DNA from: Mytilus edulis
Lineage: Eukaryota
Assembly: GCF_963676685.1 (NCBI RefSeq)
Contig: NC_092351.1
Span: 13,144,001 to 13,208,000 of the forward strand
DNA length: 64,000 nt
Reading direction: 5' to 3'
Positions within the stretch are counted from its first letter, which is position 1. Each line of letters begins with the position of its first letter. The notes below the pieces were generated by a model. It saw only the letters and a program-made list of their open reading frames with translations, did not search any database and was not told the origin of the DNA. Shown here one piece after another: positions 16,501 to 19,500 of this stretch. The position numbers and the translations under genes were made by a program.

Positions 16501-19500
16501 ATTACTACCACTGGGTCGATGCCTCTGCTGGTGGACTATTAGTCCCCGAGGGTATCACCAGCCCAGTAGCCAGCACTTCGGTACTGGCATGAAAATGCGG
16601 ATTTTTTGTGTTATTAAAATTTGCTGTTACAAAATATTAGAAATTATTATAAATTAAGGAATGTATCTCCCTCATGCAAAGCTCTGATTCCTTTCACGAA
16701 TTTGGCTATACTTTTTGGACCTTTTGGATTATTGCTCTTCATCTTTTATATAAGCTTTGGATTTCAAATATTTTGGCCACGAGCATCACTGAAGAGACAT
16801 TTATTGTCGAAATGCGCATCTGGTGCAACAAACTTGGTACCGTTGATTTTATTGTAAACTGCCCTCTAAATGTCTTTTGGTTATTGACCTATTCCAAATA
16901 ATTTTTTTCCATAAATAAAAGGTAAATGATCATGTCATTTTATAAAATAAGTACTGTAACTATCCTTACTTTTTATTGACAATATGCGTAATTAATCATT
17001 ATGCATGTCATGACATTCTTTTCTATGTTATTTTACTATACAGACCTCACAACACACAAAGCGACACCAGCATAATTCATGGCCTTGTTGTTTGGTACTG
17101 CCTTCGTCACGCCAAAAAATCCAAATCTACCAAATATATGAGATAGTGAAAACCCTATCAGAAGGGAGAATTATAGTAAGTATAATGAGAGAAACGTAGA
17201 CATCCCTTCTCTACATATATGCTGGACTAATTTTTGTCTCGAAATGTTTTAAATGTAGATTAAATGTTTTTATTTTCTATAATTTTGACCCTTTAGTTTT
17301 TGAAATGAAAAACAAAATCCAAATAGAACTTTAAGTGCACCAATAATAGTATCATAATTGGTCTAGTATCTTGAGAGTTGTAAAAAGACAACAATCGAAT
17401 ATTTTCTGCATTGAATTATATACACAAATTATGTCATTACCTTGAGGATGACAGAAAGTGATTTTTTGTCTGTGTACTGCTCAAACTATAGATACAGCGG
17501 AAAATATAAGAATGAAGTGAATCAATATTACCTTTACTCGTCATTTTATATTTCCCAAGTCGTCCAGTAAATATAAGATGAAATGATGCAATATTACCTT
17601 TGCTCGTCATTTTATATTCTCCAAGTCGTCCAGTAAATATAAGAATGAAATGGAGCAATATTACCTTTGCTCGTCATTTTATATTCTCCAAGTCGTCCAT
17701 TAAATATAAGAATGAAATGAAGCAATATTACCTTTGCTCGTCATTTTATATTCTCCAAGTCGTCCAGTAAATATAAAACAGAAATGAAGCAATGTTACCT
17801 TTGCTCGTCATTTTATATTCCCCAAGTCGTCCAGTAAATATAAGAATGAAATGCAGCAATATTACCTTTACTCGTCATTTTATATTCTCCAAGTCGTCCA
17901 GGTTCATATTACTGTACTCTTTTAAAAATGCATTTGATTCATAAACACAAACCTGCCAGTAGACCATCCACTGAGAAGATTGACCATTGACCAAATACAT
18001 AGCCCAAGACCTAAACCAACCGTCTTTACTATTGGTACAACACATATGTTACCTACAATATAATGCATATAAATATGTGTATACCAATAATAAAACTGCG
18101 AAAGGATGGTAGGCGCTAAAAATTACCGTCGGCCGTAAAATATAACATGCATGTCCAGAATGATAAAAATTTATATGTGAAAGAAAAATGACAGCTTTGC
18201 TCGTTGCTAACAAAGTGACTAGGAATTTATAACAGTATAATGTAATCCTACTCGTATGGACTGTTGTCAACTTTAGTTCATGATGTTGCCCTTTCATACA
18301 TTTTGGAAACTGATGTTTTTGATCTTAAGGGAATACGATACGGTTTTGATCCCGTATTTGCATTTTGATAAAAATTTCCATATAGACTATTTTTACCTGA
18401 TTAAATAAAATATCAAATATGTGATAATAATATACCTTCATATGCTACTTTTTGAGTAAAATGAGGTCGAAGTTTTGTATATTTGTATATTTGCTGAAAA
18501 TTTGGAATTGTGGCCGTTTTTTTCCTTTCGAAAGGAAGACATAACTTTTTTGTTTTAAAAGATAAACAAAAATGTTTTTTTGTTAAATAATTTGTAATTT
18601 CTGTATTTTATACATTTTTTATTCAGAAATAACTCATATTCATTTCATTAAATGTTCATGAATGTATAAAAAAACATAATTTTTTGCTGTATATTTATCA
18701 AATTTAAAACAATTGCACTATTTACGTTTTCATGAAAATTGGCACACATAATTTTCCCGCAGAATCAATCCAAATGACTTTTTAAAAAGAGGGGTCCATG
18801 AACTCGTTTTCAAGTTAAATAAGTTTAAATGATAACAATCAGTCGAAAACTCCATCTTTTCCCGATAAGTCATAGTTTGACGTCGCGAAAATAACAATTT
18901 ACGTTAGCAACGTCATTACCTCCCCTGTAAATGTATCGTATGCCCTTAACACACACACTATACATTTATCATAACATTTCCATAGACAAACATTTAAAAT
19001 GATAATAGCAAATGTTTATACCTATCTCCCAAACCACACCTCCAATCATTGCCATAGGAAAGAACGGTGGTTGATTTCGTATTAACTGCACAACAACGCC
19101 TGCAAGCATTGCACCGCTGCACATTATCCACTGGAAAAACATACCTGAATGTAAAGTTTGTACATAAATTAAGTAAAAAATACCCGAATGTAAAGGATAA
19201 CTTTAAAACAAAGCTTTGTCCAAAAATCGTTTTCTGCCATGTAGGTTGACACTCATTTCATCTAGAAAAACAAATATGCAATCAAAATAATATATTTATT
19301 TAAATTATCTCAACACCCTCTTTTGGTAAAATATTGTTTTTTTTAACTTTTGAGTTTTTGCATCCTTTGGTTGTTGTCTCATTGGCAATAACAAATCATT
19401 TATATGAAGATGCCACATCCTGGAATATAATATAAGTATGTACCTTTCGGTTTTTCTGATCAATACGTGTGAACATTTGTGTATTTATGAAATATGAAAT

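Follow-up and report, generated by a model that had tools for sequence, protein, structure and literature searches.

Introduction

Non-LTR retrozymes of the mussel Mytilus galloprovincialis self-cleave and accumulate as RNA circles (Cervera and de la Pena 2020, PMC7229834). Like the elements described here, they form two type I hammerhead families with 350-390-bp repeats, are present in thousands of copies and are expressed, and Penelope-like elements (PLEs) were proposed as their partners. Unlike here, neither a shared internal motif nor a fixed 3′ end or a partner clade is described in the accessible text of that paper, and a 2020 review, in its accessible part, notes that metazoan retrozymes show no conserved motif pointing to the partner (PMC7761336). 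A study of animal retrozymes similarly reports terminal sequence in common with PLEs and proposes PLE enzymes; however, its focus is on vertebrates and Xenopus pseudo-LTRs, and its accessible text holds no mollusc, no link to Naiads and no cis signal (Li et al. 2026, 10.64898/2026.07.22.740005).

Two groups of PLEs are relevant for comparison. The Naiads (Craig et al. 2021, PMC8557442) have an N-terminal GIY-YIG endonuclease, DKA and CxC motifs, pseudo-LTRs and abundant 3′ ends, as do the elements found here, and are reported without a canonical hammerhead. The accessible text describes no 5′ RNA structure in them, while the motif reported below is present, uncommented, in the consensus file. 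In the Poseidon element of the anole, as far as the accessible text of Frangieh et al. 2024 (PMC11167929) goes, reverse transcription has an internal start at +111-118 and requires the RNA as far as +172, about 55-60 nt 3′ of the start.

Here we analyze a window of 64,000 nucleotides of Mytilus edulis (contig NC_092351.1, forward strand), in which a first-pass annotation had noticed an RNA segment common to two retrozyme-like families. We suggest that this segment is a 5′ RNA motif of Naiad PLEs, which probably binds the Naiad protein and fixes the start of reverse transcription.

Results

Two retrozyme families share their most conserved segment

The window contains a family A insertion with a full monomer and two copies of family B (Table 1). 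The type I hammerhead core with helices I and II, by which metazoan retrozymes are recognized, is present, and the elements form tandem repeats with one hammerhead per unit, within the 150-450 bp expected of such retrozymes: we found 65 distinct monomers of 336-359 nt, with up to 9 units in tandem per 3-kb locus. The family B unit is about 355 nt long, and in the window copy the hammerhead core at 12392 has a change in helix II. The 33-nt tail of the family A insertion stops 6 bases short of the would-be start of the next module. The families are transcribed, with 1,082-3,567 reads in each of three RNA runs, counted per family and not for the window locus.

The near-identity claimed earlier for 16527-16588 and 12134-12195 is borne out by 54 matches over 62 positions, and so is the spacing of about 290 nt to the next predicted hammerhead cleavage (293 nt to the site after 16820, 289 nt to that after 12423). 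More informative is the distance from the preceding cleavage site, 39 nt in family A and 47 nt in family B. Between one monomer of each family, 56/60 positions are identical in the core, 114/199 in the body, 27/47 in the tail and 28/38 in the hammerhead. Loci picked by the module are biased for within-family diversity, and the figure used comes from 30 loci picked by the hammerhead alone: their mismatch to the family B reference is 4.3% in the core (35/815 aligned positions), 11.2% in the body (450/4,022) and 9.6% in the UUCG hairpin. In families A and B alike, no other part is as conserved as the shared segment. The excess conservation over the rest of the monomer thus holds, and the outcome that the annotation had named as speaking against it did not appear. 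The 1.37 Gb of genome searched contain 9,081 exact matches to a 20-mer of the core (0 to its reversed control) and 12,406 to a 20-mer of the family B hammerhead. Unit sizes, hammerheads and Naiad sequences are in keeping with a Mytilus mussel. Rfam covariance models give no match at gathering score in the window, and at 16300-16900 chance matches alone (E 4 and 5.5).

Two further groups of retrozymes were observed. Subfamily C is older and B-like, with C-G replaced by G-U in P4 and a different tail (L063, L064, L069, L074, L077 and L084); decayed pieces of it lie in the window at 11830-11870 and 14956-15084. Family D (L141-L152) has units of 547 and 573 nt, 127 exact copies of a 22-mer and long arrays on contig C8; it is abundant in RNA reads and carries an A-like hammerhead and no module. 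Family D is likely driven by another PLE clade. Elsewhere in the window there are a 67-bp minisatellite of six copies (17502-17901), inverted arms of 209 nt that are 97% complementary and enclose inner inverted segments (46595-48137), and three blocks that are related to one another and separated by about 13 and 17 kb (17948-19924, 31318-32789 and 48318-50174), possibly exons of tandem gene copies.

Boundaries and predicted fold of the module

The full module extends from 16510 to about 16591 and is predicted to form a rod of nested helices. The boundaries given by the first-pass annotation were not borne out: the conserved block begins at about 16506-16510, and the copy taken to begin at 12134 is 5′-truncated at 12132. 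Since this copy lacks the first 15 module bases, the segment had been folded as a three-way junction. The closing stem of that junction has a probability of 0.00 in both circular monomers and 0/7 of its pairs are changed on both sides, while P1 and P2 are predicted there with probabilities of 0.81-1.0. Folding of the family A copy with its 5′ flank gives the rod, with z = -3.2.

Covariation was examined in a small alignment of 10 related sequences, which represent, from the mussel genome, three families of retrozymes and two of Naiads and, in addition, five metagenome loci. Over P1, P2 and P4 together 98.8% of the cells are paired and 7/16 pairs are changed on both sides; 0/500 shuffles score as high, the slid controls reach 32-48%, and RNAalifold alone recovers the same helices. 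On the same alignment the three-way junction is 90% paired with 1/12 pairs changed on both sides, none of them in the closing stem, and we rejected it as the main fold; as 90% of its cells still pair, the core and the 5-nt linker may nevertheless make a short contact. The rows of Naiad N1 and of L313 were left out because MAFFT misaligned their insertions. By eye, N1 keeps 6/6 pairs in P1 and in P2 and has an extra hairpin after P2, and further pair changes in P1 are seen in N1 and in published Naiads.

The core is invariant in the alignment, so that it can show no covariation, and the covariation support is limited to P1, P2 and P4. We infer that the near-invariant core is a protein contact. 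The UUCG hairpin does show compensatory changes between families A and B, as was noted earlier, but it is a variable appendage, in place of which the Naiads have other short hairpins. The U-rich stretch before P1, with an unpaired probability of 0.64-0.93, is the presumed start of reverse transcription. Coding constraint on the module was rejected, because subfamily C shifts the frame by one base. HDV-like and twister topologies were rejected as well: compared by eye with the consensus of these ribozymes, the module does not have them, and Rfam is blank.

Table 1. Coordinates of the module, the retrozyme copies and the Naiad 3′ ends in the window
Feature	Position	Strand	Remarks
Naiad N1 3′ end	11597..11703	-	88% identical; ends 5 bases before module position
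Family B copy	12132..12461	+	5′-truncated at core, lacking P1 and P2 5′ strands; 38-nt tail
Naiad N3 3′ end	12693..13029	-	94% identical; ends 5 bases before module position
Naiad N2 3′ end	13916..14303	+	98% identical; ends 6 bases before module position
Family A insertion	16363..16853	+	5′-truncated piece, full 350-nt monomer (16471-16820), 33-nt tail
Type I hammerhead, copy 1	16433..16476	+	predicted cleavage after 16470
Unpaired U-rich stretch	16502..16505	+	predicted; 4-7 bases before P1; register of insertion ends
Helix P1, 5′ strand	16510..16515	+	partner 16562-16567; 100% of cells paired; 2/6 pairs changed on both sides
Helix P2, 5′ strand	16518..16523	+	partner 16551-16556; 98% paired; 4/6 pairs changed on both sides
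Near-invariant core	16525..16550	+	CTGCTGGTGGA, then capping hairpin P4, then CCGAG
Capping hairpin P4	16533-16536, 16542-16545	+	variable loop
P2 3′ strand, linker, P1 3′ strand	16551..16567	+	variable 5-nt linker at 16557-16561
Variable hairpin P5 and CATG	16569..16591	+	UUCG cap in A and B; CATG is the ORF start codon in Naiads
Type I hammerhead, copy 2	16783..16826	+	predicted cleavage after 16820
Family B 3′ fragment	26542..26716	+	without module; ends at usual register
Naiad N3, second 3′ end	36031..36264	+	89% identical; ends 6 bases before module position

Three Naiad families of the mussel carry the module

A GIY-YIG search and 20 regions led to a single element in which the endonuclease precedes the RT and which has the module at its 5′ end; a search with the endonuclease of this element added two families, 66% and 58% identical to it. 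In the three families, N1, N2 and N3, the module follows the pseudo-LTR and lies 69-89 nt upstream of the ATG; it is preceded by 3′ UTR sequence, which is the pseudo-LTR or partial tandem arrangement. Their ORFs of 995-1012 aa all place GIY-YIG (residues 130-228) N-terminal to the RT (640-863), and DKA and CxC motifs are found in 3/3. The RT scores are under the curated Pfam cut-off, and a PDB search with the N3 ORF gave nothing below E 0.7. By eye, the 5′ end of N1 matches Naiad_Mgal in the part of PMC8557442 that could be compared. Among 24 endonuclease matches the module is upstream in 20; one more is cut by the locus edge inside the module and three (L218, L222 and L223) are 5′-truncated before it.

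N3 and family A are identical at 60/69 bases of the module, and N1 and N3 share nothing with the retrozymes outside of it. Judged from sequence, N3 or a relative is the best candidate for the partner of the retrozymes. The candidate partner is a PLE of the Naiad clade, which the first-pass annotation had not named, and not a hammerhead-bearing Penelope element. The canonical hammerhead core CTGANGA is absent from the 3′ UTR and from the surroundings of the module in one copy each of N1-N3, a pattern that does not cover permuted hammerheads with a changed core. Canonical PLEs were rejected as the partner, since the model of the module has no match in 18 of 19 other GIY-YIG loci, some of which may lack the 5′ end; the nineteenth contains retrozyme copies.

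In each of the three Naiads the ATG marks the end of the module, and families A and B retain the CATG, as would be expected if the module were a translation element of the Naiad ORF, acting in start-codon placement or autoregulation and surviving as a relic in the retrozymes. However, the retrozymes have 17-22 codons after this ATG, yet their core is far better kept than the body, and translation would leave the fixed insertion end described below unexplained. We consider this a very unlikely account of the module as a whole, although translation may be its second role in Naiads.

Several other features of these elements were observed. The 3′ UTR of N2 (L229:4960-5216, L217:4848-5355, L213, L216 and L218) contains a decayed family B body, 69-73% identical; in L217 this body ends at the usual tail end, which suggests that N2 captured a retrozyme copy. 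A second conserved element, absent from the retrozymes, lies 25-60 nt into the Naiad ORFs (L219, about 1205-1300; L229, about 1305-1400). A pseudoknot and, after it, a hairpin can be drawn for this element, with pairs that change between families. One canonical PLE family (L127, L129, L133, L134 and L136) has a C-terminal endonuclease, a frame of about 790 aa, an upstream ORF and a short motif resembling a hammerhead, and its ends lie in TA repeats.

The module is found outside the mussel genome

In the accessible supplement of PMC8557442, 11 published Naiad consensus sequences have the core word close to their 5′ end, one of them being assigned to Pinctada from the order of the file. Ostrea and three Acropora families are recovered with other words, giving 15/54 sequences from four phyla (bivalves, hemichordates, a toadfish and corals); the remaining 39/54 have no exact-word match, being diverged, incomplete or split by line breaks in the file. 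By eye, P1 and P2 keep at least 5/6 pairs with different sequences in the 10 of these 11 Naiads that have a complete P1, while the 5-nt linker that was paired in the three-way junction varies among them. In a rough check the coral version of the module is more diverged.

A pattern scan of metagenomes gave 120 matches. The 102 GC-rich ones are chance matches, none of which has at least 11/12 pairs over P1 and P2, and 9 of the 18 AT-rich ones pass this pairing. Among the metagenome loci are hammerhead repeats that belong to a different sequence family and carry the module, and three of these repeats (L242, L256 and L308) end 4-5 bases before it. No motif text was found in the supplements of PMC4918200.

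Insertions end at a fixed distance before the module

Insertions of five families end mostly 4-7 bases before the module, and their tails are unrelated apart from U-richness. Among loci chosen for containing the module, 3′ ends fall at most 8 bases before P1 in 9/17 cases for N1, 4/4 for N2, 14/21 for N3, 20/26 for family A (10 cross-family matches having been dropped from 36) and 33/57 for family B. In the loci chosen by the hammerhead, 19/25 ends are at -10 to 0 and 5/30 run on into another unit, while the 5′ ends are scattered. RNA reads, a larger sample, depart from N3 between -7 and -4 and continue into mixed AT-rich flanks, at many loci and in 4/4 runs (60-270 reads per place), and they leave family A at 16503-16504 into mixed flanks in 3/3 RNA runs. 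Hence, as in Poseidon, genomic 3′ ends lie at a fixed internal site, and the RNA continues 3′ of it. In the control family D, 11/12 loci stop roughly 370 nt downstream of the hammerhead, for the most part within TA repeats. With its A-like hammerhead and no module, this family ends elsewhere, and therefore the position of the end is not determined by the hammerhead.

The fixed 3′ end before P1 would equally result from a cut or a terminator at this register, and a cut is the main rival of our reading. A self-cleaving ribozyme or a host-nuclease signal would act 4-7 bases 5′ of P1, and reverse transcription would proceed from the resulting 3′ end, as in LINEs. This accounts equally well for the fixed end; also, N1-N3 lack the CTGANGA core in the places searched, and an arrangement of covarying helices around an invariant core, 5′-terminal in a retroelement, resembles the HDV-like and twister ribozymes of R2 and RTE, as outlined in the accessible part of PMC7761336. 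However, family B RNA reads cross the site in three runs (627, 124 and 698) with no end pile-up listed, the ends are spread over about 4 bases, and no Rfam model matches. Full 353-nt mussel monomers, in a construct that presumably contained the module, were moreover purified from a dimer and circularized, according to the accessible text of PMC7229834. We therefore regard a cut as unlikely.

An internal promoter, acting as DNA, was one of the three roles proposed by the first-pass annotation. The element body begins with the module, close to the position of the Penelope and Chlamys promoters (PMC8557442, accessible part), and the retrozyme RNA is strand-biased by about 5 to 1 over the module in 2 of 3 runs. 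Nevertheless, the compensatory pairs indicate a single-stranded fold, a promoter alone does not fix 3′ ends, and N3 read depth is 120-660 before the module and 0-22 after it, with no pile-up of starts at its 5′ edge, although the sampled tissues may not express N3. The promoter is as improbable, in our view, as the translation element. The least probable of the roles considered is ligation or stability of the circular RNA: the predicted stable rod near the junction would suit it, but the module is kept in autonomous Naiads without the canonical hammerhead core, and family D retrozymes manage without the module. Translation, promoter and circle stability thus explain less than a start signal does. 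Neither the ligation or stability role nor the promoter gained support, whereas the first proposed role, recognition or priming of reverse transcription, is supported indirectly, as a putative one.

Discussion

Hence, we suggest that the module is a 5′ RNA motif of Naiad PLEs, which likely binds the Naiad protein and fixes the start of reverse transcription 4-7 bases 5′ of P1, with a probability of roughly 0.7. What the sequences and reads show is the shared motif, the covariation, its position, the common 3′ end with scattered 5′ ends, and the expression of the retrozyme families; binding, priming and mobilization by Naiads through the module are putative.

The following course of events may be proposed. 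Hammerheads would cut the retrozyme transcript and the RNA would be circularized, as published for Mytilus galloprovincialis (PMC7229834, accessible text). Such a circle has no 3′ end and thus needs an internal start signal. The Naiad protein would then bind the invariant core and nick AT-rich DNA, the free DNA 3′ end of which would pair with the unpaired U-rich stretch before P1. Copying would proceed around the circle through the tail, the junction, the hammerhead and the body, with the module as the last part. Early stops would leave 5′-truncated copies and further rounds would give tandem arrays. Being copied last, the module would be missing from short insertions.

Of the described systems, Poseidon is similar to the mussel elements in its internal start downstream of the hammerhead, the requirement for RNA 3′ of the start, the AT-rich targets and the genomic ends that match the start (PMC11167929). 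It belongs, however, to another clade with a C-terminal endonuclease, and in the accessible text, from whose description the comparison is drawn, no conserved fold is defined. The two Poseidon start sites lie in an AC-rich stem-loop inside the ORF, whereas the mussel elements have one register before an untranslated motif.

Structured RNAs that bind an RT near the start codon or the template start are also known elsewhere, namely DIVa of group II introns, hepadnaviral epsilon and the telomerase RNA core; their likeness to the module is an analogy. We also suggest, more tentatively and with considerable doubt, that a Naiad lineage, from corals to bivalves, hemichordates and a fish, has kept in the module a portable RT-docking RNA domain, which sets the template start at a fixed distance. 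If so, any RNA in which a U-rich stretch is followed by the module, circles included, could be copied and inserted by the Naiad protein. By analogy, telomerase RNA likewise places the template start for its related RT.

Retrozymes, Naiads, the idea of a PLE partner and internal initiation are already known, the partner idea from the accessible text of 10.64898/2026.07.22.740005. The literature searched, mostly outside subscription papers and the supplements of PMC7229834 and 10.64898/2026.07.22.740005, which may show the motif, contains no description of the motif or of a link between retrozymes and Naiads.

The first-pass annotation thus stands in its main point, a conserved RNA module with predicted structure in two families of hammerhead retrozymes, and is replaced in its fold and boundaries. 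For the mussel retrozymes the module would name the mobilizing partner; as this partner clade is reported without canonical hammerheads, the hammerhead is not the link between them. For PLEs it offers a 60-nt candidate, supported by covariation and with a predicted start site, for the RNA signal of internal initiation.
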